64,000 nucleotides of DNA from Okamejei kenojei (lineage: Eukaryota): positions 22,382,001-22,446,000 of the forward strand of contig CM069158.1 of the NCBI GenBank assembly GCA_035221665.1, in the 5' to 3' direction. Numbering within the stretch: position 1 is the first letter of the stretch; every line of letters begins with the position of its first letter. Below, in pieces: positions 1,856 to 57,669 of the stretch. A program made the translations under genes and the position numbers. The notes below the pieces were generated by a model. The model had not been told where the DNA came from, did no database searches, and saw only the letters and a list, made by a program, of their open reading frames with translations.

Positions 1856-2732
1856 GGTCAGGCAACGTCTCCGGAGAAAAAATGAAGGGTGACGTTTCGG
1901 GTCGGGACCCTGCTTCAGTCTTACGAAAAGAAACCCCTGTCTTTTTTTAAAAAATTGAAATAATAGTGCGTTTTATCAATAATGGAATGAGAATGAAAAT
2001 CGTTAAATTCGCACAAAAATCATGCGTTGAGAACAGCGGTACCGCGGGTGTTCAGCGGGTCTCTGCACAGATTAACCTTTTTTCCGATTATATGACAACC
2101 CGCCCTATTCTAGATTAGTTAGTTTGAAAATTGCGACGTTTTTCTTAAAACAAATTTCTTCAGTAAAATTTCAAATGTCATTCGTGCAATTAGAAAGTGT
2201 CGCGACAAGGAGCTGCAGACTGGTTTTCAAACAAAAAGGCACAACATGCTAAAATAACTCAGCGGGTCAGCCAGCATCTCTGGAGATGTTTAGGGCCGGG
2301 ACCCATCTTCAGATTCATTGTGGTGGTGGGATGGGGGGGGGGGGGGGGGGGTGAAGTAGGAGAAAGCCTCGCAGGTGATACAGGTGAGGGCAAGGGGTTG
2401 ATGGGCAGATAGTTGGACAACGGCCAGAGATGAAAGGACAAAAGGTGTGAGATAAGGATTGAAGAAGTGAGAAATATTAAACCAGAGGAAGGAATTATAG
2501 TGTGGGGGGGGTAAAAACGGTGCGCGGAAAGAAACTGCAGATGCTGGTTTATACCGAAGATGGACACAACGTTACTAAGTGGGACTGGCAGCATCTCTGG
2601 AGAAAAAGGATGGGTGACGTTTTGTGTAGGAACCCTTCTTCAGACTGCAAAAAAAAGACTACACTTAAAAAAATGATTGATTGTAGTCTGATAACCTAAA
2701 ATTGGAGAATTCAATGTTCATACCGTTGGGTT
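1856..2732 (-). mobile_element. Cluster of Penelope-like fragments (about 1856-1920, 2205-2505, 2530-2648, 2698-2732)
   Basis: Repeated GGTGACGTTT(C)…CCCTTCTTCAG motif and tail; 2698-2730 reads PNGMNIEFSNF on the minus strand. Confidence 0.75.
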
Positions 2733-3767
2733 TTTACAAGTAGAAATTGTGTGGGAGCCTCAGACCCAGCCGATCAGAACTTCACACCGTGATCGTCCTT
2801 CGGCCCTGCGCCTTCCACCTGCCCCGCGCCACTCTCAAGCGGAACAGCCACACCCGTTACATAGACTCTCCAACTTTTCCGTGCCCAATAATTAATATTG
2901 TAACTGTTGAAGCATTTCAGGGGAGGGTTATTGGAGTATTTGCAAATATATAAATATGCTACTGTTCAGGTATAAATGTGCTACTGTAATATATATAAAG
3001 TGTTCGTGCACCGGTGTTTAAGGGGACATACCGCACATTTTCTAAAGCACAAGCAGAAACACATTGCGCTCCACAATGTGACTGGTTACTGTGAGTACCT
3101 GCTCCCGGCACCGTCCCCCCGCAGGTGAGATGACAATGTGACTTCACCTGGCCGGGACTGTCGCCGGGAAGCTTGGCTTTCAAGTTGCAGGGATGTCAAG
3201 TTGTGTCTAATGACCGCGGCTGCCGCCCCTGGGACTGAGCAAAGGCTGAGCACCGCCAGTCCACCCCCTCGAGGACTCTCGCACCAATTGATTTGACCTC
3301 CTGTTTTACAACCATTTAACGCCAGGGCGGTGAACAAGAAATGGGGCCAAGCTGGGGGGGAGGGGCTGAGAGCACGCTGCACTTCCGGACGGCCAGTGGC
3401 ATGGTCTGGTCTGGACACTGGGGACTAGCCGAAGGCACGAAGCGTGTAAGCAGCAGCTCACCTGGACACTGGGATTCACAAAAATACACGAAGTGCTGTA
3501 GTAATACCTAAAACGTGGATAGCTGACGTTTCTGGTCGGGATCCTTCAGCGGACTGGGATTAAATGAAGGCACGGGACACGTGGGCAGGGGCAGAGGCCC
3601 ACCTGAACACTGGCACCGATGTTTCAACACCCAGTCACAGAGAAATAACACAACGCAAAGTTCAGAGAACGTACGAAACAACTCTGTGTTTCTGGAACCC
3701 GAGACTGAGACTTACCGACAGCATTCAATCATCTATTTTCTTTAAATGAAACCAATCCACACATATT

Positions 3768-3958
3768 GTGTAAGAAGGAACTGCAGATGCTGGTTTAATT
3801 AGACTCAAAAAGCTGGAGTAACTCAGCGGGACAGGCAGCGTCCCTGGAGAGAAGGGATGGGTGACGTTTCGGGTTGAGTCCCAAGAAGAGGCTCAACCCA
3901 TTCCTCTCCAGAGGGGCTGCTTGCCCCGCCGAGTTATTCCAGCTTTTTGTATCTATCT
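3768..3958. mobile_element. Head-to-head (palindromic) Penelope-derived element
   Basis: Arms about 3800-3862 and 3897-3955 are imperfect reverse complements of the same family tail. Confidence 0.8.
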
Positions 3959-6900
3959 TCAACACACACATATTAGTCTGTTCTACAGGTTTAACATAAT
4001 TGCAGCGCTCAGCAGGTTCAGTGGTAAAAGAGTCCCGTATCCTGGCACTAAACTATCACTTCTCTCGAGGGGACATTTCCATTTTATTTTAGAAGAATGT
4101 GAGAGGAATTGGGAGCAAGTTCACATACAATCGGATATCTTCGAATTTAACATTGTATATTTCCGTTTAGAAATACATTCCAACGCACCAAGCCATCATG
4201 AGAGAAGTTTGAAAAGTATAGAAATATATTGAAATGCTTGAAGCATCGTGAGGTGACCCCGACAGACTTAAAATCTGTGCAATATATGTGATCGGTTTAA
4301 AGTCTGGATCAGGCCCTGTTTAAAGGCGAGTTCTGTACACACAGGCCCATTGGCGCTTAACGTTACCGCATTAGCTCTTTCCTGCACTCAAACCCTCGTT
4401 TCTCCTTATTTTTGTGACCAATAGAACTGGGCTGACAAAAATAGGGGCACGTATCAGGGATAAATTCCCTGCACATGTAACCCTAACCTAGGCCTACCTT
4501 AGAGAATCACAAGTGTTTCTTTGTACCGTATGTCGGGCTCTATTGAAAAGTGGCCGCTCTGAAGTAAATGTCAAATTCGCCGCTATATTTGATGTTGGGT
4601 CACGCTGATACACATTCGGTGGCGCCGACAAGAATTTATCATATGTGTAAAAGATTTCCCATCCCATTCTCTATCCCAATGTAATTGAGTGCGTTTTTTA
4701 GAAGATAAACACAATTGTTCTGTGTTAAGTGTAAATTAAGTGCCTTGCTGCAAGACACCGATATATCCGTGGTTTACAACCACTAAAATAAAATTTAATT
4801 AATCAGTCACCCATGGCTTTTGTCTTATTCCGAGAGGTGCGGAGTTATTTTAAATATTTTTAGGCCAGTTTACACATTCTCGTTAAAATCGCATCTCAAT
4901 TATTTTTCTTTAAACATATCATTCTATAAAATTGCGAGCTTGATTTCAGTTTGAAAAAAAAAACAGGGACGAGGATTTGCTACGTATCTGAAATGTTATT
5001 TTGAACTTGACTTTCAGGGGAGCGAGTGTTTTACAAACCTCCCCTCGGCAGTAGGTTCGTCAAACCTGCACCATTTCAAGGTCACTTCATTTTTCGATAT
5101 TTTGACGCTCTTCGGCGGTACGTTGTTCGACCCGCTTCCTCCTCCATCCCCGTTAAAATCGGCACTGAACAAGCGCTGGTCCAGGAGCCCAGAGCTAAAA
5201 GGACAAGATTTTTTAATCGACTGAAAAAAAAAAAACAATTCTCTTTCGGAAATTCTCAATTTTGATCGCAACATTTCCCTCTCGGGAAAATGGTTACGAG
5301 GCACAAATAAAATTAGACTTCTACAATGAATGACCCGCTCCTCGCCCTTGCAGGGGGAAGTCCACAGGTAAAGTGCCATTAGGTCCATCGTTGCCCTGAT
5401 CCAACTGCCCGGGGTCCAGGTCCCCACAAGGGCTGCCTGCAACTCAAGTTAAGGAAGTGTTCGCCGTTTACACACCCGCATTGTCGCATTAGCACCGATG
5501 AAGAATATAGTTCGATGTTTCATGCAGGCTTGGGTCAAATTTTCACTCTCCAATCTTGTATTTATAATAAGTTTCCAATTTCAAGTATTATCGAGAGGTC
5601 GGGTTGTATTGAAATGGATGAAATGGGTATGGTGGGGTAGGGGGGCAGGAGTGGAACAGCGAGCCCCTGGATCGGGACATTTCTCTCAAACACCTCTATT
5701 GAAATCCGATGTGTGATATTTTAATTTAGCATTAACGTGCGCTGAGGATGTAAAACGGGTTCCATTTCTGGGGTTTGCTGATTGAAACATTCTCCCATCC
5801 TTGCGGCAAAGATCACAGATATTCCTCCATTAGACATTCCTTCAACGTGCAGGGCACGCAAAAAATATCCTAAAATATATAAACGTTCGCCGTGTAACGG
5901 GGCGGTAAAAGACGTTTGAACTTCCACGCACACTGACGCAAACGCGTAATCACAAACGCGGCGAATTTTTGGGAAGATTTCTCCTACCGTGGCTGAAATC
6001 ATAATTTGCATTAAAATATCGTCCTTTAAAAAAAAAACCCTCTTGTGTTGCTTGCAGTCGGGGCTTGTTGCACCGCCCGCGGGGTTTGGGGGGAATACGC
6101 TGGTAGCCAACAGCAAGGTACAGAGACAGTCAGAGATACGTCTGTCTTTAACCTCACGTCGGGCAACGTGACCCAAAGCTCCGCTTCCAATGCTCTCTGT
6201 CTGCCTTGTTGGAGCAAGCCTATCTCACTCAGTGTGATCTCGGCGGCAGATTGTGCAGGTTCCCCTCACCCATGCCCCAGCACGAGAGAAGGAGGTTAGG
6301 AGGAGATGGGGGGTTGGGGGGAGTAGGCAGTGAGAAAGGCAAATACATGTTGTACAGGCTCGCCAGGGGACAGCCAGCCCGGCTGCATCGCTACAGCGAT
6401 AGAGCGAATTGTAGCTGGATCCCGGCTGTGAGCGGCTGTGTGTGTGCGCGCTGTTTTAAAGAGCAATTGTATTTATCTGAAGGTAGTACCAGGTGATGAG
6501 GAATTGCAAAGGTAGCTCGGACGGTGGCCGACAGAGAGAGAGAGAGAGGGAGAGAGTGAATGAGTGAATATGAGAGAACCAGAGGCGGGGGGTGGCGTCT
6601 CCACATGTCCAGGACGTGCCATCCGATCTCTGCTTCATTAACGCGCTGCCAACTGTTGGGATTAATATACAAAGCAGATTATGCAGACAGGAGCGCGCTC
6701 TCATGGTGAATGCTTCTGCCAGTTGAAGTCTCGGAAGAGAACATCTATCGCGCCACGTCTTCCCATCCACATCCGCGAGGACATGTTGGCGCATATTTCA
6801 TTTCCACCCAAACGAGTGTGCAGTGTAAGGCGTGAAGGGAGAGAGGAAATCTGATCCCGCAGAGAGCGAACAATGGGCATCACTTCACCCGGACAATGAA

Positions 6901-9900
6901 TTGCCAGTTTGGCTGCTTGTATTTCTGGACACGTCCACAGCGGTTTGGATTCCAGCGCGGACTCCCAGAGACCTGGGACAAGTTGTGTGAGAAAATGTGA
7001 GGGAGCCGAGGAGGGGTGGGTGTCGTGGGCGAGCGGCGGAGTTGCATCTCTTGTCTACTTTCTGCCCCCACTTTGGGCATCTGTCGAACTCGGCCACGGA
7101 AAAAGAGACCTAAAACAAGACAAACAAGATCACCTGTCGCGGTAGGAACACGCCGACTCGATCAAGGATGCCCAGTCTTCATTCAATGACCTGCGAGGAA
7201 CGAGAACTCGTGGCCGTAAGATCACATTCGTCAAAATCATGTGAGTAACACGAGCTTTTTCTTCGTTAAGTCTCAAATTTGAAGGAACATGAAGGATGGA
7301 GGGCGGGGGGGGGGGGGGGGGGGGGTGGAGAAAGTGATATTGACCTGAGCTGTTCTGAGCTGATTACTTCATTTGGGAAACTGCAATCAGACTCAGGCGG
7401 AGAGCATTTAGGAATTGAGCGAAAAAGATCAGCAATATCCTAGCAGCGAAAGTTTATCACGGGTCTGGTTATTTGCCGGTAAATACTCGGGGGGGTAGAA
7501 CATTGAGTTATTTCTGCATGGGCAAATATCTCAACATTTTTTTTTGTCAAAGCGCGGAATTTCTGCTCAAGCGGCACAGAAACGAGCAAAGGCCCAAAAA
7601 ACTTGTGTCGTTGGCAAACCCCAGTTGTCTTAATAATCACCAGTTCATGGGAAAATTCCGCTGAGGCCCTTGCTCTGCGCTAGCGTGACACCAGAACCCG
7701 TTGTCCGGCCAAATTCAATTCTGACAGACGCATTATTATGTTAATATCATCCTCTGTGCTGTTGAACTTGATTTTGACTTCCTCCATTGCCAACGATTTT
7801 TTGCGGTCACTTGCTTGTTAAGAAGAGAGAGATAAAAAAAAAAGCCCCCACTCTCCTGGGAGTAGCGTGTGAAATTAAAATATTCTGAATCAGTCCTGTC
7901 CTTTTATAATCAAGTGTGTGTCTGTGTCTGGGTGGAGGGAGGAGGGGCAGGAAAGGGAGGAATGGGTTGGACAACATTTGTAAAGGCATCAAGTCTGTCT
8001 GCACCGTTTTGAAGGCAAGCATTCAGATAATGGAGTAAGGAGAACGTAACATTTCAAACTGAAATCTGTGCGCTAGCCAGCGAAATGTGGAGTCTGGGGG
8101 TGTGTGTGGACGGTCTGTGTTAAAGTTACACCGCATTTGACCAGTGCCCCATTTATTCAAGCCGACGGCCACCGTCACATTGTGACCGGCAAAAATCTTT
8201 CACCGGCCAAACATCTCTCTTCTGAAATGCGAATCTCCATTATACCCTGCACCAGAAGGTAAGATCATTGGCGGGAGTATGTAAAACGGAATTGGCCGAA
8301 TTAATACAATCTAACAAAGGTAGCAAATGTGATGCACGCCTCGTCCTAAAAAGGTGTTTTCGGCCGTGGAACGGCAGCGTCGTGTTATCGCCACGGCAGA
8401 CTGGCCCCGATTGCAAGCTTCTTAATCGGGATTACACTTTACCCCAGCTCCCGTTATTGAACGGGGGTTTTCACAATTGTACCCCATCATGCTCTCCGTG
8501 TAACATGTTTCCAATTATCCACCAGTCCACCCATGCGTTTCTCGATCTACCGTCTATGTTTCCTTAAATGTATCTGCGTGCACATGTGTGTGTGCACAGG
8601 GCACTTATAGACACGGTATATTGTGTGCGTTAATTGCAGAGAGAAGGGGGGAGATATTTAAGCACACATTTGTTCACACACGTAGGTCTGGTGTAACTCG
8701 TTGAAGATACTGCAGAACATAACGTTTGTAGGGGAACCTTTGGCTTACCCGCTGGCGCAGATCGGTGGGCCTTATTGAAGGAGGTTTGATCCTAGATTTT
8801 AGCACAAACTCAAAGGATGTAAAACTTTGCGAGCTGGCCCACTCTCTCCACCAAGATTTAAAGGATTATTGATTATTAAATTACAACCCCTCCCTTCGCA
8901 GACCTTAGCCTAGCCCAGTGCTGGTCTGATCCTTGAGACCGGGGCCACGTTACTCCAGCAGACACCGAGAAACATGCTTTACTTTGGCGGTGTGTGGAGA
9001 TCGGCAGCCGGATTTAAAACTATATTTCACCAGAGATTAAATTATACCCGGCGAATATAAGAATCGACATTACTGGGGATATTCGGGATATTCTCCTCCT
9101 ATAATAAATATGTGAGAGAGTAAACCAGAGACCATTTCCTGATAAACTAAACACAAGGCGCTGTATTTTCTGCGTGTGTTTTTAGAGTTCAATAAGACAA
9201 AGGTACAATATTAGACAATTACCGTCAGGATAAGGCTGATATACTCCCCCGGTCCCCCTCCCATTTGAGAATGTAAACCCTCATAAACTGGCCAACAAAA
9301 CAGAAGCGACATAGGCATGTTTGCGGGCCTGTTACAGAGAATTACAAGCACTTGCATAGTCTCTTGGTTTCTCTCTCATTTCATGTTAATCGCTTGAGAT
9401 GCTCTTATTTACTGTTAGAATATATATATAACTCTCCTATATTTTGTCACCGTGTGCTCACGCCAAAGGCTTGACTCGAGATATCAACGGGAATAAAGGC
9501 GGAACATAGAACTTTCCCTCAGCTGCAGAAACAATGATATTTTAAAATATTATTTGACACCGCTGAGACCTCGGGATATAGATACGGTGTCTGCGCTGAG
9601 GCAGAGTAGTTGTATCCTCCTGTTCAAATACACTGGCCTGGCATGGTGTTCGATATAAAACTGACCCCCCAGTTTAAGACAACGACGCCTCCAGGTTAAA
9701 CTATGCAAACCCCGGACAAAAGGTGGGAGTTCGGAGTGAGAATAGACACGGAGAAAACGACGAGACGCACCTTTCACGTATTTACTGCTGTATATTTCTG
9801 CGTGGACCCAGAGAAGTGCACATGAGGCAGCGAGGAAGAGGGAGATTGGGAGAATTACAAATCTAAATGGTTGCATCCTTGATTTTATTTGTAAACAATA

Positions 9901-12477
9901 TTGTTTATAATTGACCCACCTATAGAAAAAAAAGTGAAACATTCCTATTTTATCAATTATATTAAATTTACATTAATCCGGCCTACCCTTTGTCAATGTT
10001 CCCCTTTTCCATTGACGAATCCTTATAAGAGGTGGGAAGCCGCTTCCCTCCTCATCGACAATGTGTGTTCCTGCTAACACATGTTAAACTTGGCGATAAA
10101 TGTCCCTTCCCTCCCGGCGCAGCACCACACTAATCTAAACTAACTGGGAAACCCCGGCGCCAAGATAACGTATAAACATCTTAATACAGGATGGGAACGA
10201 GATCACCACTGTTCCAGTACAATATAATCCGCTGTTCTGGATATCAGCTTCCTGACTTAAACCACCGCTAGCTCACCTCCCACCCGATCAACGTTCAGTT
10301 TAAATTAATTTCAATTAGATTTTTTGAGGGACTCCGCACTTTCGCTCCCAGCACATTCGGTGCCAGCGAATGTCCCGTATCCCGGCCACATTGCACTGTC
10401 ACGCAGCCTTTCTTAAGAGCTTCGAAGTGTTCACCATTAACCTGGCATTTCACTGCTTGTGACATTTATAAGCTTCACCGTTGCTGCAGCAAGTCCCTCG
10501 ACCACGGACGATGTGTATAATGATACCTTTCCCAAAAATGTCAAGCACTTAGTTCACCTGTGGAACTAAGATGTCCACTCAACCATTGGAGCTGCTTATT
10601 CAATGTATAAGAGGGATTATTCCTATATCTCTTTAGTGCAACTGCCCACCCCATTTGTTAACGGGTGGGGTGAGAGAGAGAGAGAGAGGGAATGCATCTG
10701 AATGTCTTCATGTGTATATAAATGGGAGGGGGCAGGAGGACGCGTGAGTGTGTGCCTTGTACATATATGTGAGTGGACGTGTTTGTGACAGGGTAAAAGC
10801 GGCGCGATAAGATATTTATAGCTGTCCAGTTGTGTCAGAAACTCTGAGCATGTTGTCGTGAAATGTATTAGCCGTTCACTTTTTCCATGTCAAATATGTA
10901 TTTTTTTTAAATATATATTTGTTACACGTGTTTGCTAGGGACGAAAGGCGAGAGACAATCGTGCGTTGCAAGCGGTTGGTAGTTCCAGGCATATCTGGAG
11001 AAAATGTAGACTTTGCATTGAGATAGGAGTAGCAAATGTAACCCGAATTTGTTGTTCATAAATGATGCCTATATATCTGTGTTTTACACAAGCAGTGTGC
11101 GATTTCCATGCCTATAATCCGTATATGCACAGATGGAGATTTAGCATCTGATGGGTTTGTTAATCCGGGTGTAAACGGGTGGATTATCAGCGTGAGTCTC
11201 GTCCGGCCAATTTGCGATATCATCGCTCGCCTGCCCAGGGTTCTGAGGATTAGAATATATGAGATTTAAACGACTTGATTCCCTTAAAGATGACACTTGC
11301 TTCGTTTCCTGGAATGTATTCAAAATCACATGCCCCAAACTCATTTCGTTTCGAATATTTTAGAAGGTTGACTGGAACCATTTAACGAGGTGCGTATGGC
11401 CCAGGTCGCGTTATTTCTCCGGGTTCGCCCAGCCGTGGTACCGTGAAGGTCAGTGGTTTATGAGTCCTCGCTAAAGAAAGTTTCTCTGAAGCGGCGACAT
11501 TTCTCTCTCCTCGCCCTCGCCCCTCAGTTCGGGCGCGCCCGAGCTTCAACACGACCATTAGTTTGAGATGAATCAAGTGCATTTCAATCGACCTCGGTTG
11601 GGCTACGCCTGGGACTGACGGAGAAGACTGGGTTCCGGGGCAGACCCAGTCCCTTCACTTGATCGGATCGGCTCAGGTTCACAGATCATGCGGCAGATCA
11701 TCACAGATCATCCGTAGCCGAATTGATCTTGAGGCCCAGACGCCGCAGTGGCGGTGATTCCTCCAGTCACAGGCTCTTACGGGTGCTGGTCGCAGATAGG
11801 GCGGCATTTAATCAGCTCCAGCAGTCTATGGCTATCAGATGGCTGGCCCAAGAGGGAGGCAACCGGAGTGAAGAGTGCAGAACACGTTGAGGGTTGTTTT
11901 ATGAAGTCAGGAAACATAACGATGGTCAAGAATTAACTAAAGAAGTCCGAACTTCAGAACCTGCGACGTGGTTAAGGATCAGTGGACTATTTGGCAGCTG
12001 GTCTGCAACAGAGTAGGGTCTTTGGAAGGGCGAATGAATGAATGGCCGGGTGCCGGGCCGTGCGCGCAGTGTAAGGTAAGGATGTGCGTGGGATTGACTC
12101 CGCACCTCCTGCCGCCGGCCGACAGCCAGTCTGGGGGCAGATACACCGTTGGTGATCATGAGAGGAGATGTTGGAAAGCAAACGGCAGTTATGAAGACCT
12201 ACTGGACAGTCGTCAGTAAATCCAGTGCTCAGCTCAGGAGTAATGCCTCAGCCCAGAGAGTTGCGAAAGAATGTGACACAGCGAGTGGTCGCGCCGAACA
12301 GGTCAGAGGCATGGATGTGGGAGGGGGGGGGGGGGGGGGGGGGGAGGGGGGAGGGTAACACGAGGGATACGGGGATCTGCCGATGAGAGGGGGCTGGTGG
12401 GAGGGGCGCGGAACTCTATGTGTTTCCCGCCAGCCGTCTCCTAGAAAGTTCTCGTGTATTCTGGCAAAGAAGATTGG

Positions 12478-12565
12478 AAGGCACAGAGTGTTGGAGCAAC
12501 TGAGCGGGTCAGTCAGCATCTCTGGAGAACACGGATAGGTGACGTTTCGGATCATGACCCTTCTA
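12478..12565 (-). mobile_element. Solo Penelope-derived hammerhead-tail fragment (other copies near 3485-3552, 14033-14080, 16085-16220, 16611-16680, 38555-38700, 48968-49060, 53544-53706)
   Basis: Same family motif GGATAGGTGACGTTTCGG…GACCCTTCT and tail as the copies above. Confidence 0.7.
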
Positions 12566-13655: not shown

Positions 13656-14179
13656 TGCGTTTTTTCCATGTATCAGCGTGTAGGGAAAGGAGATAATCAG
13701 ACGAAGGCCATCGATCTCTTCAAAACCAGTGGAAATGTTGTATGGAATCGGTTGTCTTTTAAATACATCTGTTAACCCGTAATTCGGTAGAATTTGTAAT
13801 GGCGTAAGGTGTGACCTGTGATTCATCATATTTGGCGATTGGCCTTTCCGATTGAGGGGTGTAACCGTGTGCTGAACAAACTATAATGCACAGGGGGCTT
13901 GGACACGTGCAAACATCAACAAGCAGACTTTTAATATTATAAAATAAATGCTTTTAGACATCTCTTAACATCTCCCTCAGATAAAGTTCTCCCAATCATA
14001 TCTCTCGTGATCCTTTCGCTTCTTGACTCTCCGTCTGAAGAAGGGTCTCGACCCAAAACGTCACCTATTCCTTTTTTCCACCCTCTCACCTCTGTGCACT
14101 GCTTCTTACAATGAAATACGTTTGAAATGTGCTCTCCCTCTCTCTCTCTCCCACTCACTTATATACCCACACATCTCTC

Positions 14180-14326: not shown

Positions 14327-15159
14327 GCAATGATCTGATGTCTATCTCAGTGATGTACATTGAGCTATAAATACTGGCCCCATGACTCCAAAGGGAATTG
14401 TTGATCCTCTTTAACTAAAGAAGACCGTGGTTCACCTTTTCATTTGGGTTGCATCTCCAGTGGTGCCAGGCACGAGCAACAGAGCAAGACCTCTGCGGCA
14501 GCTTCGTAAGTGCCGGCAGCGCACCTAGGCATTGTGCCACCAACACCACACGCGTTTTCAGCAATCATTCATCACACATGGCAATCCATTGGTAATGTCC
14601 CTCTGACAAAGCGGGGCACCCTGAGCCCTTCCCCTCCCGTGGTGCAGCAGTCTCCGGCTGCCGTGTCTGCGACCATGCGGCGCTCCTTGGTCGCCGAGCC
14701 AGAGTTTGTGCCTGCATTTTGTGTGGTCAGCCTCTACAGTGGAATTTAAATCCCCAATCCCCTGGCATGGCGAGGGGAGAAATGTATTTCTCTTTTTTTT
14801 TAGGATATGGAGGGAGCTATCGGAGCCCCGGGCCCAAACAGGGACAGTGTAACTTAAAATATCAGCTTGTATTTCTATAGCACCCTTTAAGAACATAAAA
14901 AATAGAACAGTACAGAGTAGGAACGGGTCGTTCGGCCCAAAATATCCGTGCCGAACATATTGCCAAGTTATTCCAATCTGCTCTGCGAACACGCGACCCA
15001 TATCTGTAAAACATGTAACTTTGTACAATATCTGGATCGTGACTATTGAACAACTTTAACCCTGGACCATGTAGGATGAGAGGACAAACGTGGAAAAGCT
15101 TGGTCAACAAAGGTTTGTTTAAATGTCTAGATGGAAGTCATAGATGCAGAGAGAGGACA

Positions 15160-15335
15160 AGACAACGTCCTGGCGTAACTTAGCAGGTCAGGCAGCATCC
15201 CTGGACAACATGCATAGGGGACGTTTCGAGTTGAAAACATCAGCTATCCATGTTCTCCAGAGATGCTGCCGGACCCGTTGAATTACTCCAGCACTTTTTC
15301 CTTTAGTCTATTAATCAGCATTAGCAGTTCTTTGT
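15160..15335. mobile_element. Head-to-head Penelope-derived element
   Basis: GGTCAGGCAGCATCCCTGGACAACATG… faces …CATGTTCTCCAGAGATGCTGCCGGACC. Confidence 0.75.
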
Positions 15336-16394
15336 GTGTACGATGCAGGGAGAGGGTTCGGTGGTCGGGTCCAGGATGATAAATATAGAATATTTAGATG
15401 CGACGTGGATGCAAGTTGGTGCCAGGATCTGGCTTTACTCCAGAGTAATCTATGAAGGATCCCGGCGATGGCGTGTTCATCACACGCTTGTGTTCTGATC
15501 CATTCCACCAATGGGATGGCAATTTCCTTCCTTTAGCTCCTCCCTTCTATTTCTATTTATTCCTCGGGTTGCGTGAAATTAGCAACAACCGCTGCTCCCT
15601 ATTCGTGGAGACACCACATAGTTGGCATGGAGGAACATGATGCTTGGTTACAGAGGCGCAGGTCAGGAGTTTCCAAAAGACAAGAGAGTTTAGGAACGAA
15701 ATTCCAGCGCTTGGCGCTGAGACAGCTGACGGTTCTGCCGCAAAGGGGGAAACGTTGGCTGTGCGAGGCGCTACAATTTGATGCAATCATCCCCTCTGGT
15801 CCATGTGCCCCATCTGCGGACGCACCCATTTCTCCATTCCTCCTTCCTTTCCGTCTCCTTCCACCTACCCCCCTCCCTATGGCTTCACATGTTGCTCTTC
15901 TATCCTTCTCACACTGTTGTCTTTTTCATTTCTCGACCTAGTCGCACACCAAAAACAATCTGCTCAATCGCACCCCCCCCTCCCCGCCCGCCCCCCCCCC
16001 CCCCCCCGTCCCGTATCCCTTTATCATTCCGTCAGGTTTTGTCTCGCCACCACCTCTCTTCTAGTCTCCCCCCTCCACTACAACCAGTCGAAAGAAGGGT
16101 TCCGTCCCGAAACCTCGCATATCCATGTTCTCCAGAGATGTTGCCTGAAGCATGTTCTCCAACGATGCTGCCTGATCCATGTTCTCCAGAGAGGCTGCCT
16201 GGCCCACTGAGCCGCTCCCACAATGTATTTTCAACAATGAACCAAGCGCTGTGCAATCCCAATGGACATGTTACCGCCGAAGCAACTCGGCGGCCTCGTC
16301 GCTTGGCATCAATATATTTCTGACATAGTAATAATCACTGATGGTCAACGACTTGCCTCTGGAGCTCAGCAGGTCGCGGGTGAACAACGCTCCA

Positions 16395-16890
16395 GGTGTG
16401 GAGTTCACTTTATATCCCGTTGACCTGAGCTTGTATTAGGTTGACTTTACTACGGTACAGGGGAAGTGCAGCACCATTCGAGGTCGCTGCTGCCCAATGA
16501 CGTGTTAAACTGAGGGCCATTCCTGCGGACAGATGTGAAGTATCCCCTTGAAGAAAGAGATGCCCTCTATCCTGGTTAATATTTACCTGTATCGACCAAA
16601 CCCGAGGCCAGGTGAAGGGTCTCGACCCGGACATTTCCCACACACATGCCGCCTGACCCACCGTGTGTCTGCAGCAGCCTATGTATTGCGCCGGGTTACA
16701 GCAGTTGCCGCCTCTGGCCCCGATAACGGATGATTTGGGACATTATCACATTGGTGTTTACGAAACTTGCTGCCCGCACGGCACTTCTGTTTTCTCATTC
16801 CAACAATGATTACTTTTCAGAAGTTTTCCCTGGTCGTAACATTTGTGGCAGGATTTGACCCGTGATCGGTGCTATCTAGACGTGTATTGC
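16395..16890 (+). mobile_element. Old DeuSINE (SacSINE1-like) relic interrupted near 16610-16720
   Basis: Recalled similarity to the Deu domain (…GTTAAACTGAGGGCC…GAAGAAAGAG…TCCTGGTTAATATTTA…CATTATCACATTGGTGTTT). Highly diverged. Confidence 0.6.
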
Positions 16891-42571: not shown

Positions 42572-42599
42572 TCACTTAGACAAAAATGGAGATGTGTTG

Positions 42600-44697: not shown

Positions 44698-46499
44698 TTA
44701 CCAAGAGAAAGAGAGTATAGGGAAATTGAGAAAGATAGAGAGCAGGAGAGATAAAGGGAGAGAGACAGACAGGCAAAGGTGTAGAGAGATGGCAAGAGGG
44801 GGAGAGAGAGATGGAGAGAGAGGGGGGGGGTTGCTGAGGGAGAAAGAGAGAGAGGCAGTGAGAAAGAGAGATGGTGAGAGAGAAACAGAGAGGGGGGAAG
44901 ATGACAATAGATAATAGTTGCAGGAGTCGGCCATTCAGACCTTCAAGAGGGAGAGGGGGATGGAGCCGGAGTAAGTGAAAGGGAGATGGAGATGGGAAGG
45001 TGGAGACAGAATGAGAGCAAAACTAACCAATCCACTCACTATAAACCAGTTGGTCTGTATATTAGCTGTATGATAAATATTCAGCAAGATGAGCCAGCAG
45101 TGATATTCCTAATGGAGCAAGATCCATTTTTAATAAATAACTTCTCAATGAAAGTGCTTATGGAATATGCTGAACATTCAAAATATTCATTTAAAATAAC
45201 TATTACCCTGGAGTGGGTTACAAACTAGAATATGTTCAAGGACGGAGTAGTTTATATATCGATTAAATGATACCCAGGAGGGTGGTACAGCCTGGAATCT
45301 AATCTGGGTATAGGTTGGTTTATATATATATTTACCATGGAGTGTGTAATGAACTCTAAAGTGATGGTGATTTTAATGCAGAATAATATACACCTGGAGT
45401 TGAGATATCAAGCTGGAGGTTGGACACGTTCTAGATAAGGTGTCATTCATACACACAGGCCAAGCCCCAATTCAGGCATTTGTGGTTTATATATAGAACT
45501 ATAGATACATGTGTGTGAGTTATAGGCTTGAATATATGTTAAAGTTCTCAAGCCATCAAGGGTTGTTGTTAATGTCTGAGGCTTGTGATCTGGTTCAGTG
45601 ATCTCTGATCACAGCTGGAGTTTTCAATGTTTGGAATATTGTTCAGATGTCACGCTGTGGCTTTCATTCAGTGGGCCTTGTGGAATGGCCACATGATCAA
45701 GCATGCCCTGTGTTGTTGGCACAAGAGTGAAGTATGCATTTGAGCTAAGTGATAGTCAACCTACCGTTGTACATTCATCGCAAGCAATTTACAGCCAATT
45801 GCTGGTTTATTCAGACTAGTTCCATCGTCACACACTACACAATGTTACAACAGGTGCACTTACATAATGCATTTCACCACATCAGAACTTGCATTGCATC
45901 ATCAGAGTTCTTGGTCAGCATTTTGTCACTGAGAAAGAAACTGGATTAAAAAAAATTACATTCCCAACTTAATGTACATCTTCCTAAGCAGGTGACAGAA
46001 TTCTACTCCGAGCAAGCCTTAGGACTAGAACTAAAAGCATGGTCATGGGAAACGTATGAAGGAGCTCGGAAAGGAACATTGACATGAGAGATCCCGAGGT
46101 TAAAGTGCAGGCAGGGCATCAAAAGTGAGTGTGAAAATAGTGGCATTTAAGAATCTTTTGAATTGGCACATTGGGATGTAGGGAATAGGAGGAATAAGCA
46201 TCATGTGCAAGCAGATGACGTTAGTTTATCTTGGCATCATGTTCGGCATGGATATTGCTTGCCAAAAGGCCTGTCCCTGTGTGGTACTGTGCTGTCCTAT
46301 CTTCTAAGAATGCAATCTGCTACAGTATACTGCACTTATCATTCTGCGCATATTATTGTTCTTCGGAATGTTGGCGCTAATTTCCAAACAAAATACCATG
46401 GGATGATAATAACTCTCCAGGTGTTTGGAAGGTCAGTTACGCCACATTTAGTTGATGCAGGAAGAACATTGACATGAGACTTAGATCATAGAACATCTA

Positions 46500-48127
46500 C
46501 AGTGGCTTGCAAAAGTATTCATACCCCTTGAACTTTTCCACATATTGTCACGTTACAATCACAAACGTAAATGCATTTTATTGGGATTTTATGTGATAGA
46601 CCAAACAAAGTGGTGCATAATTGTGAAGTGGAAGGAAAATGATACATGGTTTCATGTATCATTTAAAAAAAATCAAATAAAAAACTGAAAAGTGTGGCGT
46701 GCAAAAGTATTCAGCCCCCCCTGAGTCAACACTTTGTAGAACCACCTTTTGCTGCAATTACAGCTGCAAGTCTTTTGGGGTATGTCTCTACTAGCTTTGC
46801 ACATCTAGAGACTGACATTTTTGCCCATTCTTCTTTGCAAAATAGCGCAAGCTCAGTCAGATTGGATGGAGAGTGTCTGTGAACACCAATTTTCAAGTCT
46901 TGCCAGAGATTCTCAATTGGATTTAGGTCTGACTTTGACTGGGCCATTCTAACATGAATATGCTTTGATCTAAACCATTCCATTGTAGCTCTGGCTGTAT
47001 GTTTAGGGTCGTTGTCCTGCTGGAAGGTGAACCTCCGCCCCAGTCTCAAGTCTTTTGCAAACTCTAACAGGTTTTCTTCCAAGATTGCCCTGTATTTGGC
47101 TCCATCCATCTTCCCATCAACTCTGACCAGCTTCCCTGTCCCTGCTGAAGAAAAGCATCCCCACAGCATGATGTTGCCACCACCATGTTTGACAGTGAGG
47201 ATGGTGTGTTCAGGGTGATGTGCAGTGTTAGTTTTCTGCCACACATAGCGTTTTGCATTTAGGCCAAAAACTTCAATTTTGGTCTCATCAGACCAGAGCA
47301 CCTTCCTCCACATGTTTGCTGTGTCCCCCACATGGCTTGTGGCAAACTGCAAATGGGACTTCTTATGGCTTTGTTTCAACAATGGCTTTCTTGCCACTCT
47401 TCCATAAAGACTCGATTTGTGGAGTGCACGACTGATAGTTGTCCTGTGGACAGATTCTCCCACCTGAGGTGGATCTCTGCAGCTCCTCCCGAGTGACCAT
47501 GGGCCTCTTCGCTGCTTCTCTGATCAATGCTCTCCTTGCCCGGCCTGTCAGTTTAGGTGGACGGCCATGTCTTGGTAGGTTTGCAGTTGTCCCATACTCT
47601 TTCCATTTTCGGATGATGGATTGAACAGTGCTCTGTGAGATGTTCAAAGCTTGGGATATTTTTTTATAACCTAACCCTGCTTTAAACATCTCCACAACTT
47701 TATCCCTGACCTGTCTGGTGTGTTCCTTGGGCTTCATGATGCCCAAGGAACATTGTTTGTTCACTAATGTTCTCTAACAAACCTCTGAGGCCTTCACAGA
47801 ACAGCTGTGTTTATACTAAGATTAGATTACACACAAGTGGACTCTATTTACTAATTAGGTGACTTCTAAAGGCAATTGGTTGCACTGGATTTTATTTAGG
47901 GGTATCAGAGTAAAGGGGGCTGAATACTTTTGCGCGCCACACTTTTCAGTTTTTTATTTGTAAAAAAATTTGAAAACCATGTATCATTTTCCTTTCACTT
48001 CACAATTATGTGCCACTTTGTGTTGGTCTATCACATAAAATCCCAATAAAATACATTTACATTTGTGGTTGTAACGTGACAAAATGTGGAAAAGTTCAAG
48101 GGGTATGAATACTTTTGCAAGCCACTG
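46500..48127 (-). mobile_element. Full-length Tc1/mariner DNA transposon, IR/DR type, Passport-like
   Basis: TA duplications at 46498-46499 and 48128-48129; about 215-bp terminal inverted repeats (46500-46719, 47915-48127) starting CAGTGGCTTGCAAAAGTATTCA, with the internal direct repeat GCAAAAGTATTCA; 1628 bp long; encloses a transposase. Confidence 0.97.
46726..47737 (-). pseudogene. Tc1 transposase, frameshifted
   Basis: MKPKEHTRQVRDKVVE… paired-like HTH with GRPPK, then WSDETK, QQDNDPKH and DLNPIENLW catalytic motifs. One frameshift near 47465 and two compensating deletions near 46930-46955. Confidence 0.95.
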
Positions 48128-49912
48128 TAGCTGTCAGTGTCCAGTGACAGGAGGTAGTTGATTGCTCACACTGGCATTATAGTGAATAACTTCTCATTTC
48201 ATGACTCCATCTCCATGTGCAAGCAGAGTGTGTCTCATGTGTAACACCAGAATTACATTGTACTTGGGGAAAGTGTGTGGGCAGGTGTTTGTGTTGGTGT
48301 TTGTGCATGTGTGTGTGTGTGTGTGTGTGCGCATGTGTGTGTGCATGTTTGTGCGTGTACATGTGACAAAGAGTTTGCTTTTCTGTGGGCAAGCTATATT
48401 TTCTGTACCATCCAGCAATGAAAAAAGAATTACATCAAAACAATTTGCTTTGGAAATTATTTAAGACCACCTTGTACCTTATGCATCTGGCTGCAGGTAT
48501 TTGGTTGCAACAGGTAAATAATACATGAGGTTTTATTGCAAACAATAATTGCTTGTTGAAACTACCACGGGTAGAATGCAATAATGAGGAAACAAAATGG
48601 GCTTTGGAATATACAGTACATCAGCGATCAAAGTAGACATCGCCAGCCTCCACGAGAATGGAAGGGTTTGTTTGAAGAGTGGTGGGCAGTTTCCACGCAG
48701 TACGGTCTTTTCATGTTACAGCAATTTGGCGACTTGCTAAATTGATTAATATTTATATTGCATGTGATCTTAAGGACATTTCAAAATTCAAGTACTGTTG
48801 AACTGTAATCTTTATTCTAACATAGGAAACACAGCTCTATCTAACAGCAAAATGTTTGTTTAATTATAGTCAGGGAAGAATAGATGTGAAACAGATCACC
48901 GGGCCACTGTAATTCGAATTTCACTGACCCTTAATTGGTACATGTGACAATAAACTGACCTTGAACCTTGAAGAAGGGTCTTGATCCAAAACTTCACACA
49001 TTCCTTCCCTCCAGAGATGTTGCTAGTCCCACTGAGTTACTCCACCATTTTGTGTCTATCTATTGGGTTAAAACTCCTCGGGTCCTCTCCAATGAATGTC
49101 TTGGCAACTTGTACATCCTCTCACTGCTGCATTGAAGCTCTGGTCTGGAATGTGGTTCAACATGGTGTGATGGTCAACACGGCCCCCCCCCCCCCCCCCT
49201 CCCCAGCTTTGGGCTTCATTACAGTTTTTGCCCTCTCATCAATTGGAGAGGGTACATGGCTGAATGGGGTATTCATCACGGAGCTCTCGTATCTATCATT
49301 TGGTCTGTGAATACGAGCAGACCATGAGTGTTATTGCAAGCCAGTGGAATTTGTAATGGATTACAAAGGCCAAAGTTTAAAGGAGATGTGCAGTGATAAT
49401 TTGTATCACCAGATCAGATCAGATTGTAACGAGCCTGACCTGGACGCACACCTACGTTGCTGCATTGACTTCCTGGTCGCTGAGTAGAAAATGTCGCATG
49501 CAGGTCACCCGTGGTTCAGTCAATGACGGGACAGCGCTCCAAGGAGCCTAGAGATGGAAGAGAGATCAAGTTAGTTAGATCTTGGAGAAACGTGTCAAGT
49601 CAAGTGTCGTGACTTGTCATATGTACCGGCAATAGAGCCACAAACGTACCTGCAGCATCATTACAGGACCATTAACACAGACAAATTTACAAAAAAACAG
49701 TAACACAATAAATTAACATGAGCGGGAAGAAAACTGACCAGAAAAAGGTGAAAACAAGTTTTAAAAAGTCCCAAAGACAAATTCACTCCCGATTGAATTG
49801 GGATCCTGGGAGTAAAAGACTTCTCCAGTCTTCAGCTGAGGACACCCCAGTTGTTGGGAGCGGCTTTCACGTTTAGTTGGCGCTTGATCTCTACTCCCAC
49901 CTGAGCTCCTAA

Positions 49913-50149: not shown

Positions 50150-50421
50150 TAAACATCGCGGGCAGCGGAGTGCTGATCCGCGCGGTCAGAGAGTTGGGAA
50201 ATCTGTGTTCCTGCCACAACTTGCACGTTGACACCGCTCGGATTTGTCACTTTTCGAAGAAGTTTCTGAGGGTTGACACCAGGAAGTCCCCGCCTGAATT
50301 CATTGACCTCCTTCCCGTCCTCTGTCTGACAATGAAAGTGAATTGTTTATTAAGCTTGCAATTGAAGTTAACACCTCTTCAATTTGAACACGAGCAACAA
50401 ATCTGTAACTGGAATCTTGAA

Positions 50422-50582
50422 TACAGCACAAAGTGCTGGAGTAACTCAAGGTGTCAGGCAGCATCTCTGGAGGGCGTGGATACATTGGCGTTTCGAGTCG
50501 GGACCCTTCTTCAATCTGCAGTCCGAAACGTCGCTTATCCACGTTCTCCAGAGATGCTGCCTGACCTCCAGCACTTTGTGTT
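50422..50582. mobile_element. Head-to-head Penelope-derived element
   Basis: CACAAAGTGCTGGAG…GTCAGGCAGCATCTCTGGAG faces CTCCAGAGATGCTGCCTGAC…CTCCAGCACTTTGTG. Confidence 0.8.
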
Positions 50583-50585
50583 GAG

Positions 50586-50772
50586 AGTTTAGAGACACAG
50601 CGTGGAAACAGGCCCTGTGGCACACTGAGCCCGCGCCAACCCACAATCACCCGAACACTAGTTCCATACTACACACTAGGGACAATTTACATAGGCCAAT
50701 TAACCGACAAATATGCACGTCTTTGTAATGTGGGGGGAAACTGGAGCACCTGGAGAAAACCCACGCGGTTAC
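50586..50772 (-). mobile_element. SINE 3' half, same family (other partial copies about 31480-31676 minus, 59490-59880 plus, 61305-61480 plus)
   Basis: Reverse complement of the SINE tail and V-domain-like segment. Confidence 0.75.

Positions 50773-51070: not shown

Positions 51071-51074
<4 letters not shown>

Positions 51075-51134
<60 letters not shown>
51075..51134. repeat. (GA)n microsatellite
   Basis: Directly visible. Confidence 0.95.
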
Positions 51135-51137
<3 letters not shown>

Positions 51138-52284: not shown

Positions 52285-52750
52285 ATGTGCTGCAAAAAGC
52301 GACTTATTCCACTTGCGTAGCTTACAACCCAATGACATGAACAAAGACCTCCAGTTTTAGGTTTCTACAAAACCCCCTCTCCCTTTTTCCCCCTAACTCC
52401 CAACCTTCCTACACCTACCCTACTGTGCCCTAACTGGACTAGCACCTGCTTCACCCCTTCCCTCTCACCTACATTCCTTCCTCTTGCTTCACAATTCGCA
52501 AATCTTCAATCCATTGGTTTCACACCTTCTGTCTTTTCGTCTCTGGACTTTGTCCACCATTTGCCTATCAACCCCCACCCGCCTTCACCACCACCTTTTG
52601 TCTATTTTGCCCTCCTACCGTCAACCCGAAGAAGGGTCCTGACCTGAAACGTCACCGATCCATGTTCTCCAGCGATGGTGCCCGACCCACTGAGTTACTG
52701 CAGAACTTTGTGACTTGTTTTGTAAATCGGCATCTGCAATTCCTCGTATC
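52285..52750 (+). mobile_element. Penelope-like element 3' fragment with degenerate hammerhead motif
   Basis: AGCTTACAACCCAATGACATGAAC (SLQPNDMN), pyrimidine-rich UTR, CCGAAGAAGGGTCCTGACCTGAAACGTCACC and the shared tail CATGTTCTCCAG…GAGTTACT…GCATCTGCA. Confidence 0.75.
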
Positions 52751-52937
52751 CCTGGGTAGAGTAGATAAGAAGTGTGTACATCCTTTAGCTGCAAGGTAAA
52801 CCCATTGGCAAATTAGGTAACTAAATGAGATTAGTAGAGAGGTGATGACAAAGACTTCTTTCATTGTGAGTTGTTGCGTCAGAAATTAAATGTCGGTAAG
52901 GATGAGAGACACATTTTCATTGCACTTTAACCAGTAT

Positions 52938-53256
52938 GGCGGGGTGGCGCAGCTGGGAGAGCTGCTGCCCAGCAGCACCAGAGACACGGGTTCAATCCTG
53001 ACCACAGTGCTATCTGTGTACAGTTGGCACATTCTCCTTTTCACTCTGTGGGTCTCCTCCAGGTGCTCTGGTTTCCTCCTACATACCAAAGACATGCAGT
53101 TTTGTAGGTTAATTGGCTTCTGTAAATTGCCCCTAATGTGTAGGGATTGGAAACAAAAGTGGGATAAGATTGACCCAGTGTGAATTGGTGATTGACGGTC
53201 AGCAAGGACTTGGTGGGACCAAGGTGCCTGTATCCACGCTGTATCTTTCAATCAAA
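52938..53256 (+). mobile_element. tRNA-derived SINE (HE1/V-SINE-like)
   Basis: A box TGGCGCAGCTGG (52945-52956), B box GGTTCAATCC (52989-52998), V-domain-like GGTGCTCTGGTTTCCTCCTACATACCAAAGAC, and a 3' tail shared with the CR1-like LINEs. Confidence 0.85.
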
Positions 53257-53974
53257 CAGTATTTGTATGTTTATTTTTGTGTTGTGAACATGGTGAGATT
53301 CAGTGTGCAGTTCCCTCTGTTCAGGCTCACCCCTTGGGCCAAGCTCTTGGCTGTCAGTCCTGACGAATCCTTTGCCAGGTCAGCATTCATTTTTGCTCCC
53401 CTGATGCTCTTGGACCATTTAGTTCTGTCAAAGTTGTTTTAGAATTGCAAATTATTGTTGCTGTCACTACATAAAAGATTATCTCTTCAAAGTAAGAAGG
53501 CAAAAATTGCCCTTTACAAAATCAGGGTATCCAAGGACTCAAATGGAGAACATGGATAGGTGATGTTTCGCATCAGGACTCTCCTTCAGAATAATGGGTA
53601 CCAACTCAAAACATTCCCTATGTATGTTCTCCAGAGTTTAGGCTGAGTTACTCCAGCACTTTGTGTCCATTTGTGTAAACCAGCATCTGCAGTTCTTCGT
53701 TTCTACAGAAGAATATCTAGATGATCCTAATCTTCTCCCCTCCAACTATTCCTAACCAAGAACTTTGCAATCAACTTCTCACTGGCTGTGTCTTTGTCCA
53801 ACACACACCCTCCTCAGATCTGTGTCACAATCACGGATTCAGCGTTTGCATTCAGACCCCTTAACACCTAACATTGAGGCTCTGGTGCCAGAATTCTGTA
53901 ACACCAGAGTTTCCCTCTGGCAAAATCTCCCCAAAGTCAGCAAAGTGCCTGCTGTTCCTTGAAGGAAATTATTG

Positions 53975-54699: not shown

Positions 54700-54921
54700 T
54701 ATGGCAGTGGTCGATTTGCTGCCTTGCAGCCCCAGAGACCAGGATCAATCCCGGATACGGGTGCTGTCTATACGGAGTTTGTATGTTCTCCCGGTGACCT
54801 CGTGGGTTTTCCTTGGGTGCTCCGGTTTCTTCCCACATTTCAAAGACGTACAGGTTTGTCAGTTAATTAGCTTCGGTAAAGATTGTAAATTGTCCCAATT
54901 GTGTAGGATAGCGCTAGTGTA
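54700..54921 (+). mobile_element. 3'-truncated SINE, same family
   Basis: Colinear with the other copies through the V-domain-like segment. Confidence 0.8.
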
Positions 54922-55800: not shown

Positions 55801-56108
55801 GGGCGACACAGTGACGCAGCCTTAGAGCTAATGCCTTACAGTTCCAGAGAGCCAGGTTTGATCCTGACTACAGATGCTGTAAGTACGTAATTTGTACGAC
55901 CTCCCTGTGACCGCTTGGGTTTGCTCCGGGTGTTCCGATTTCCTCCCACACTTCAAAGACATGCAGATTTGTAGATTAATTGGCTTCGGCAAAATTTATA
56001 AATGATCCCTAGTGTGTAGGATTGTGCTAGTGTGTGGGGATCATTGCTGGTCGGTGCGGACTCAGTGGGTGGAAGGGCCTGTTTCTACGCTGCCTCACTA
56101 AAGTCTAA
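55801..56108 (+). mobile_element. tRNA-derived SINE, same family
   Basis: Colinear with the 52938-53256 copy; degenerate A and B boxes; GAAGGGCCTGTTTC tail. Confidence 0.85.
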
Positions 56109-57482
56109 TGTTCCAGATATGAGTCACCAATAACCTATATAGAATATTAATAGGTTCTCTGCAAGAAAAATAAGATACATACATTTGTGAAATATTCCAT
56201 AGGCGGGGGGATTGCGCCTTCCTTGCCGACAAACCACGATAGGGGGGGAGTTGCCATCCCTATTGCCCTCAGCAGCCACTCAGATCAACACAAAGGGGGG
56301 GGGGGGGGGCCATTGCTGTTCTGGTTGCCCCATGAAGGGGCAATTGAGCCCCCCCACCCAGTCTGTCAATCCTGAGTTACTGCTTGATAAGTAGCGCCAA
56401 ACACAGGTCAGTTACTGAACCTGGCTTCTGGCCAGATCTGTCTGCTCCTAGCTTGCCTGAACATCCCAGTCCCACCTCAGCCTCGGAAAGGTGAGACTGC
56501 AGACTCTGGAATCCCGAGTCACACACCGGCGTTGCCAGCGGACCAAGTGTCTCCCCGACTGCCTTTGGGCCAAAACCTCCACACGCTACTCCAACATCAC
56601 CCTGCTCCACCCTCACCCTCTTCTCCCCAACTCGGATCCTGTGCCTGATCCAGCTCAGACACCTGCCATGGCTTCATCTTGAGTAGCTGCAAATGAATAA
56701 CCTGCAAAACTACTTCAATCACTGGATAGATAGGGATGCTGTCTCTGCAAAGTTGTTGGCAGGGCAGGCAAGGAATTGTCAATGTGCTCTCCCAGACTAA
56801 CATCATAGCTCTGACCACACACAGTTGCCAGACCAGGTTGCCCTTGCATCTGATGCTAAATGCCTGTTGAGATTCCAAGAGGACAGAGAAAGCACTTCAA
56901 GGACATTTTGGAGACTTGCGAAAAGATGTTGCATCCTTCCCAACTCGTGAAGAAATATCCGTGATGGCACAGAGAACTCTTGAATCCATTGCCACAATTT
57001 AATAGAAGTCATGTCAAAGACTTATAGAGCTGCACAGGCAGGAAACAGGCCCTTCGGCCCACCTTGCCCATGCTGGCCAAGTTGGCATATTGGGCCTGTC
57101 CCACTATCTTTCATTTGGCCCATATCCCTCTAAACCCTACCTACCACATATCTGTCCAAATGTCTTTTAAAGTTGTAATTATATGCACTTCCATAGTTTC
57201 CCCTGGCATGTCCAAAATGCAGGTCTAGATATTTCAAGCACCTCCTACCCCAACTGTGCTTGAGCCTTGCAGTCCCACACTGGCATTAACAAAGTGGAGC
57301 AAGTCATCCATACCCCAGGAGCTCCTTGGGAATTAGCTGGGAAGCACAAGGACAGGATTCATGGGAATACCAACACTTGGTCTTCAGCTTCAGTTGCAAA
57401 GGACCCTTTGCATTGAGCAATGTCCCTGTGACTATCCAAACACTTTGAGAAAAGTTCACAGGCCAACAAACCAGGAAGGAAA

Positions 57483-57669
57483 AGGACACAAAGTGCAGGT
57501 CAGGCAGCATCTCTGGAGAACATGGATAGGTGACGTTTTGTGTCAGGATCTTTCTTCAGACTGATGACCCGAAACATCACCTATCCATGTTTTCCAGAGA
57601 TGCTGTCTGACCCTGCTGAGTTACTCCAGCACATTGTGCCTTTTTTTGTGAACCGGCATCTGCAGTTCC
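57483..57669. mobile_element. Head-to-head Penelope-derived element
   Basis: GGTCAGGCAGCATCTCTGGAGAACATGGATAGGTGA pairs with TCACCTATCCATGTTTTCCAGAGATGCTGTCTGACC (36 bp, 2 mismatches). Confidence 0.85.

Follow-up and report, generated by a model that had tools for sequence, protein, structure and literature searches.

Short hammerhead repeats of Okamejei kenojei are truncated ends of a Penelope-like element and were probably copied from uncleaved RNA

A stretch of 64,000 nucleotides from Okamejei kenojei (contig CM069158.1, positions 22,382,001 to 22,446,000; hereafter the window) carries, dispersed on both strands, many copies of a short repeat that holds a minimal hammerhead ribozyme motif. 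The locus raises the question of what these units are and whether the ribozyme takes part in their spread. An initial annotation, made from the letters of the window, took them for a high-copy, non-autonomous family of ribozyme retroelements derived from Penelope-like elements (PLEs), in which the role of hammerheads is stated to be unclear (PMC8557442). We found that the short units are 5'-truncated copies of the pseudo-long-terminal-repeat (pseudo-LTR) end of an autonomous PLE with a reverse transcriptase (RT) and a GIY-YIG endonuclease (EN). Probably, the enzyme of this element inserted the ends with uncleaved RNA as template, the shortest of them arising by 5' run-off 2-3 nt before the motif.

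The repeat was followed through 664 kb of sampled DNA, consisting of the window and six 100-kb blocks of the same genome; the blocks were picked by hand and include the window's neighbours, and unit density varies 3.5-fold. A hidden Markov model (HMM) trained on 161 sampled copies and applied at E ≤ 1e-3 gave 24 matches in the window, 315 in the 664 kb and none in the reversed sequence used as control, and an earlier model seeded on window copies gave no match at E < 0.01 in 10 local shuffles. Exact matches to a 28-nt core number 48,215 in the 2.76-Gb animal genome (control 0), which bears out the very high copy number that had been proposed. Extrapolation of the sample density yields about 1.3 million units, a figure that holds as an order of magnitude only. 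As the units cover 32 kb of the sampled DNA, about 5% of it is to be annotated as PLE pseudo-LTR fragments rather than as short interspersed nuclear elements (SINEs) or miniature inverted-repeat transposable elements. This family was not described in the literature searched; it may nonetheless be present in Repbase or Dfam.

The units are physically tied to a PLE open reading frame (ORF). A query with a partial ORF of one locus returned 157,827 first-look candidates in the genome, 119 of which were scored, and in 18 of 20 long copies picked from the candidate list the hammerhead lay about 240 nt behind the ORF stop. Within the 664 kb, 20 of 25 ORF ends were followed by a unit 85-400 nt downstream. 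At the other end of the element, the ORF 5' region served as query (29 loci given); of the 27 loci that could be oriented, 19 had a hammerhead 259-262 nt ahead of the 5' anchor. Twenty regions, mostly chosen for an upstream hammerhead, were fetched; 19 could be oriented, and all 19 had a second hammerhead downstream, mostly about 3.95 kb off. In these 3.95-kb partial tandems the next ORF starts about 165 nt downstream of C3 of the motif, the zero point for all copy-end positions given below. At one locus (L357; G000:C6:42873400-42881700), an intact ORF of 1,185 aa with a long proline-rich N-terminal linker lies between two hammerheads 3,954 nt apart. Its Pfam matches to RVT_1 (E 4.5e-6) and GIY-YIG (E 0.004) both fall under the curated cut-offs; a C-x4-C-x2-C sequence, read directly, fits the CX2-5CxxC linker between RT and EN that is given for Neptune and Nematis (PMC8557442), and by this motif we provisionally assign the element to the Neptune/Nematis type. 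A Pfam scan of two partial ORFs gave no family, and a PDB sequence search with the RT part gave no match. Partial tandem and inverted pseudo-LTR copies with the tail at one end are also present in this genome. The motif is thus the pseudo-LTR end of an autonomous RT+GIY-YIG PLE, so that both the PLE link and the autonomous partner that the initial annotation proposed to look for are real; so are the three C-terminal ORF remnants that it had seen near hammerheads of the window (E values in the table; best reversed control, E 0.12). The ORF 5' regions at 29 other loci are 99-100% identical, which suggests recent activity.

Three further features of the element were observed. At another locus, internal to its chromosome (L062; G000:C6:92816500-92824500), a near-full-length PLE is truncated on its 5' side directly next to about 16 telomeric TTAGGG repeats. 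Different subfamilies retain, without covariation, an 8-bp complementarity of the long tail to the region from about +47 to +54 (L021:1498-1630, L357). Finally, a short frame upstream of the main ORF begins at a conserved ATG at about +51, and the region of the main start codon is overlapped by a donor-like GT.

The relation between short units and autonomous copies was read from the young subfamily; the window copies belong to older subfamilies, whose clusters show about 9-13% divergence. Short copies of the young subfamily do not differ in sequence from the pseudo-LTR of intact elements, and intermediate lengths connect them with long 5'-truncated copies. The 3' ends of copies cluster at two preferred positions, +90-97 (around +92) and +119-129 (around +127). 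An exact duplication of 8-25 bp flanks 27 of 63 short non-inverted candidates, a set that includes some long copies of other subfamilies and some passengers; the target-site duplications measure about 11 bp. A non-autonomous master lineage was not found in the young subfamily. Two recurrent junction types that might have represented such masters were rejected, since their flanks are shared as well and the units are passengers inside other repeats. Nor did a general Rfam scan, as opposed to a dedicated tRNA scan, detect an RNA polymerase III head (tRNA, 5S or 7SL) over the units. In the window, the units lie scattered or in head-to-head pairs and form no tandem hammerhead arrays; tandems were not searched for genome-wide. 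A separate non-autonomous ribozyme family, as initially annotated, is therefore probably wrong, given that short young copies match the autonomous pseudo-LTR and that the recurrent junctions are those of passengers. In each of two other repeat families, the passengers represent one head-to-head hammerhead insertion that was amplified together with its host repeat (L228, L229, L233, L241 and L242; L219, L222 and L224).

If the units are truncated ends, the positions at which they begin should bear on the state of the RNA that was copied. Of 93 exact-core copies listed within the initial 4.7 Mb of a single contig, a set that requires the whole core and in which a few entries are repeat views of one insertion or duplicated loci, 53 belong to the young subfamily. 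Their 5' ends were distributed bimodally, with 24 within 13 nt of C3, 5 at 31-202 nt and 24 beyond 230 nt, a difference of about 80-fold per nucleotide. Genome-wide counts of break-off patterns were 1,580 at -1, 3,125 at -2 and 2,870 at -3, whereas the cleavage site gave 194 and a control position 7 nt downstream gave 158. When 100 matches listed for each position were inspected by eye, as were all such tallies here, true independent ends numbered about 79, 93 and 66 at -1, -2 and -3, about 58 at the cleavage site and about 41 at the control. Once independence and flank letters are corrected for, cleavage-site ends are about 10-20 times less frequent than those at -2/-3, an approximate ratio as the anchors differ between the searches. 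Copies thus start mostly just before the motif and seldom at the cut site, and were therefore likely copied from uncut RNA. Passengers of the first type, the L228 group, make up about 20 of the 100 listed matches for ends at -3.

Of 66 independent ends at -3, 32 carry an extra G directly before the start (p = 4e-4), as do 44 of 100 ends at -2 (p = 3e-3), by eye. Reverse transcriptases copy the cap as an extra G, and the YCAGT at the motif edge resembles the initiator consensus of transcript starts. Internal promoters with initiator-like starts have been described for PLEs (PMC2377424, PMC3846280). A fixed 5' end before a PLE hammerhead was not found in the literature searched, and this fixed start is the one point of our reading that was not met there.

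From these ends we put together a sequence of events. Transcription would start in the upstream pseudo-LTR at the motif edge, at the initiator-like YCAGT, and yield a capped RNA. The element's protein would prime at either of two internal sites, and the two 3' ends observed here may correspond to the two RT start sites of the anole element PAc. Priming in the 3' repeat would give long truncated copies, and priming in the 5' repeat run-off (strong-stop) cDNAs 95-130 nt in length; head-to-head pairs would arise when both target strands are primed and the products join at microhomology. A start at -3 would also account for the very short stem I. In its full form this proposal, which we advance only tentatively, holds that a capped start 2-3 nt before the core produces a strong-stop cDNA of 95-130 nt that has been inserted, singly or as twin-primed pairs, about a million times, and that the hammerhead is kept mainly as a promoter or RT-binding element and not as a cutter.

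The head-to-head pairs often combine the two 3' ends. They account for 10 of the 24 window matches and had been overlooked initially. Three of the five window pairs are flanked by duplications of 10-14 bp, and each of these three joins one long-tail to one short-tail arm; mixed tails of this kind were seen for 16 of 20 inverted arms. Genome-wide, the self-complementary CAG-W-CTG immediately ahead of the motif forms the centre of 803 exact palindromes. Palindrome centres were not enriched at the cleavage site, with 4-5 located there, 6 at a nearby TA and 7 at ACGT among 50 listed loci. PAc uses two internal start sites, with both strands extended and insertion from unprocessed RNA (PMC11167929).

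Several observations weigh against reading transcript start and template from the copy ends. The 5' ends form a gradient from about +14 to -13 that peaks near -2 and mark no single base. With a more downstream anchor (33,828 matches; 100 listed, by eye), the core contained about 15 ends, up to 14 more lay between +2 and +4, and about 7 fell on the 3' side of the cleavage site. Ends at the cleavage site, with point mutants removed by eye, are about 1.7 times as frequent as at the control, so a small cleaved fraction is possible. The excess of the extra G is modest and has no counterpart from a second truncation site as matched control; where a duplication was mapped, only 6 of 13 copies had G as the last untemplated letter. 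The CAG at the start, with a pyrimidine tract before it, might instead be a splice acceptor. Moreover, the transcript start is read from genomic copy ends alone, the sequencing runs being available as contigs; the 20 inverted arms include repeat views of a few insertions; and the L357 ORF scores below the curated cut-offs for both RVT_1 and GIY-YIG.

We next consider the ribozyme itself. The minimal type I layout with a loopless palindromic stem III, as originally described, is present. Among gap-free sampled units, 53 of 130 keep the core boxes CUGANGA, GAAA and UH. A structure-based descriptor of minimal hammerheads matched 37 times in the 600 kb outside the window, twice in the reversed control and never in the window, because the best window copy (28407-28434) has an A.C mismatch in stem II. 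All 37 matches lack loop III; the repeat also shows the extra nucleotide after A9, the G10.1-C11.1 pair and the self-complementary 15.2-16.2. In the 30 matches with the extra nucleotide, stem I measures 2 bp in 20, is shorter in 8 and longer in 2, and a 2-bp helix I fits only the D. virilis-like variant. An Rfam scan of the window returned no hammerhead family at E ≤ 1. Covariation, which the initial annotation had named as a test for stem II, was absent: no pair had changed on both sides in 20 aligned copies, a comparison of low power as these are closely related subfamilies of one genome. An apparently compensatory stem II subfamily, with an A-U swap seen twice, was rejected as CpG decay (22 of 100 listed against a background of 0.23). 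A core mismatch of 6.1% against 9.8% was not taken as evidence of excess core conservation, since copies decay after insertion, subfamilies are mixed and the alignment is biased by its anchoring on the core.

Could the hammerhead nevertheless cut in vivo as a dimer and process a tandem transcript into a linear or circular template, a route put forward by Cervera and de la Pena? Subfamily consensuses of 7% to 22% divergence retain the core boxes while the upstream untranslated region (UTR) turns over, and their changes within the motif are confined to N7, loop II and H17 or yield G-U pairs. Both this retention and the 1.7-fold ratio at the cleavage site are what a cleaving dimer could leave, and a religated circle, which leaves no end at the site, is compatible with the end counts. 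Against this stand the 2-bp stem I in 20 of 30 matches, the lack of compensatory change and of palindrome centres in excess at the cleavage site, and the predicted folding energies: the active dimer evaluates at -6.7 kcal/mol, whereas two stem II hairpins that fold separately reach -9.6 and the best alternative structure reaches -26.6. The active fold of the dimer is thus predicted to be unfavourable, and we regard dimer cleavage as doubtful. For PAc, cleavage required protein and was dispensable for insertion (PMC11167929). We infer that the hammerhead studied here is poorly active or protein-dependent, and dead in the old copies of the window.

An unlikely alternative places the cause of the 5' cluster elsewhere, in a structural RT stop or in processing at a splice acceptor, with head-to-head pairs formed by self-priming on an antisense template (PMC3846280). 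A pyrimidine tract and YAG precede the motif in the aligned subfamilies, a D. virilis intron ends at helix I (PMC4209133), the CUGA box of the short unit is predicted to pair with the tail end, and the 803 exact palindromes on CAG-W-CTG would suit self-priming. However, ends at -2/-3, which retain the G or AG that splicing removes, outnumber those at -1; a shared upstream exon was seen in none of 300 listed ends, by eye; the predicted fold is no better than shuffles (z -1.4); and the arms are usually unequal and differ in their tails. Among 100 listed ends, inspected by eye, none represented a spliced form in which the pre-motif CAG is joined to a donor-like site downstream. In the contigs of four sequencing runs, depth is raised over the hammerhead and tail, and none of 15 joints listed of 73 is of the GT..AG type; these contig data have no bearing on expression, start or cleavage. 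Part of the stretch is present in contigs of 20 of 21 listed runs (10 coded organisms and metagenome labels, the RNA status being mostly guessed).

Finally, it is improbable that the short units propagate themselves as a SINE- or retrozyme-like non-autonomous family, with an internal promoter of their own and PLE protein in trans: the ORF end adjoins only about 20 of 315 units, and many short units have duplications of their own and retain the putative start and both putative RT start sites, making them possible substrates, but young short and long copies are identical in sequence, 3' ends lie at PLE tail positions, the recurrent junctions share their flanks as passengers do, and the window is free of tandem hammerhead arrays.

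We return to the truncated pseudo-LTR ends and their published relatives. The minimal hammerheads of metazoan PLEs have the same core boxes, extra nucleotide after A9, G10.1-C11.1 pair and loopless palindromic stem III, the same pseudo-LTR location, and occur mostly as solo motifs tied to truncated PLEs and in opposite-strand pairs (PMC4209133). The same source gives 4-5 and 7-8 bp for stems I and II of Schistosoma, compared with 2 bp (as in the D. virilis variant) and 4 bp here, and about 4,000-9,000 motifs in coelacanth and Xenopus, counted differently, compared with 48,215 identical cores; the core here is nearly invariant, without the covariation reported there. With the EN+ PLEs Neptune and Nematis (PMC8557442, PMC3846280) the element shares a single ORF with RT, CX2-5CxxC linker and C-terminal GIY-YIG, as well as inverted 5'-truncated copies, the partial tandem arrangement, duplications of about 10 bp and a tail of 30-40 bp that is often confined to one end. 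It differs from other PLEs of this type, as described there, in its 1,185-aa ORF with the long proline-rich N-terminal linker and in the very large share of copies that consist of the last 95-130 nt. The Anolis Poseidon element PAc has the same two internal 3' ends that define a tail and the same insertion from unprocessed RNA, and no reads end at its cleavage site, as few copies do here; its ORF starts inside stem II, whereas the long ORF here starts about 165 nt downstream of C3 (PMC11167929). Non-LTR retrozymes, reported in one chondrichthyan, share the hammerhead, the derivation from a PLE pseudo-LTR and the non-coding nature, but are tandem repeats with a hammerhead per unit, whereas the units here are dispersed monomers or head-to-head pairs (bioRxiv 10.64898/2026.07.22.740005).

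Motif and host are therefore already known in kind, and the value lies in the data set, in which tens of thousands of near-identical young copies allow insertion ends to be counted base by base. These counts favour an uncleaved RNA template, a transcript start at the motif edge and the paired use of two RT start sites. If true, the copy ends would be a genome-scale record of the PLE transcript start, of its RT start sites and of the near-absence of cleavage in vivo. L357 is a natural intact element usable in the in vitro assay established for the anole PLE.

Within the window, about 16 of the 24 units reach the hammerhead part, in agreement with the roughly 15 copies between 1856 and 57669 that had been noted (Table 1). 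Allowing up to 3 mismatches, the motif as first written down matches the window 5 times, where chance would give none, and the G12>A change reported at 14055 is present. The claim that 28407-28434 alone has a complete core holds in that it is the sole family copy to keep CUGANGA, GAAA and UH; its stem II is nonetheless broken by the A.C mismatch at the second pair. A loose regular expression for the three boxes also matched two non-family strings in the window.

Table 1 Units of the hammerhead repeat and PLE remnants in the window
Position	Strand or arms	Feature	Basis
1856-1925	minus	Short unit, hammerhead decayed, 3' part lost	HMM
2198-2323	minus	Long-tail unit; PLE 3' UTR-like sequence upstream to about 2520	HMM; UTR likeness to 52363-52615 by eye
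2522-2649	minus	Long-tail unit about 50 nt behind ORF end	HMM
2690-2734	minus	PLE ORF C-terminal remnant	E 3.7e-8
3516-3561	minus	Hammerhead fragment, old and decayed	HMM
3758-3974	3755-3882 minus, long tail; 3873-3972 plus, short tail	Head-to-head pair	Exact 10-bp target-site duplications at 3758 and 3965
12442-12564	minus	Unit truncated within CUGANGA box	HMM
14025-14080	plus	Unit with G12>A at 14055, 3' part lost	HMM
15143-15355	15137-15235 minus, short tail; 15235-15347 plus, long tail	Head-to-head pair	14-bp duplication, one mismatch
16078-16233	plus	Decayed unit, internal 27-nt duplications	HMM matches 16078-16148 and 16175-16233
16611-16703	plus	Decayed unit	HMM
28322-28444	minus	Unit ending truncated PLE (3' end), about 200 nt behind ORF end	HMM
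28407-28434	minus	Sole window hammerhead with all core bases; stem II A.C mismatch, 2-bp stem I	
28629-28731	minus	PLE ORF C-terminal remnant, end of GIY-YIG domain	E 1.5e-21
30654-30690	minus	Fragment from downstream of hammerhead	HMM, E 1e-3
38559-38656	minus	Old fragment, downstream part and long tail	HMM
48968-49072	plus	Short unit, hammerhead CpG-decayed	HMM
50384-50582	50384-50522 minus; 50523-50582 plus	Head-to-head pair	No convincing duplication
52305-52363	plus	PLE ORF C-terminal remnant	E 1.9e-7
52616-52761	plus	Long-tail unit, 3' end of truncated PLE with ORF end 52305-52363	HMM
53544-53715	53544-53597 minus; 53586-53715 plus, long tail	Head-to-head pair	No convincing duplication
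57475-57692	57480-57568 minus, short tail; 57566-57688 plus, long tail	Head-to-head pair	11-bp duplication, one mismatch

Three other features of the window were observed. A mir-9 family precursor at 41111-41187 (Rfam, 69.6 bits, above the gathering score) lies within the GC-rich interval 40001-42000 (GC 0.61). A DNA transposon at 46493-48134, which we take to be Tc1/mariner-like, has inverted ends of 96% identity and, on the minus strand, a transposase-like ORF broken by a frameshift. Another dispersed repeat family, which by eye resembles a SINE, occurs at 31510-31609, 50669-50772, 52938-53209, 54788-54880 and 55901-55993.

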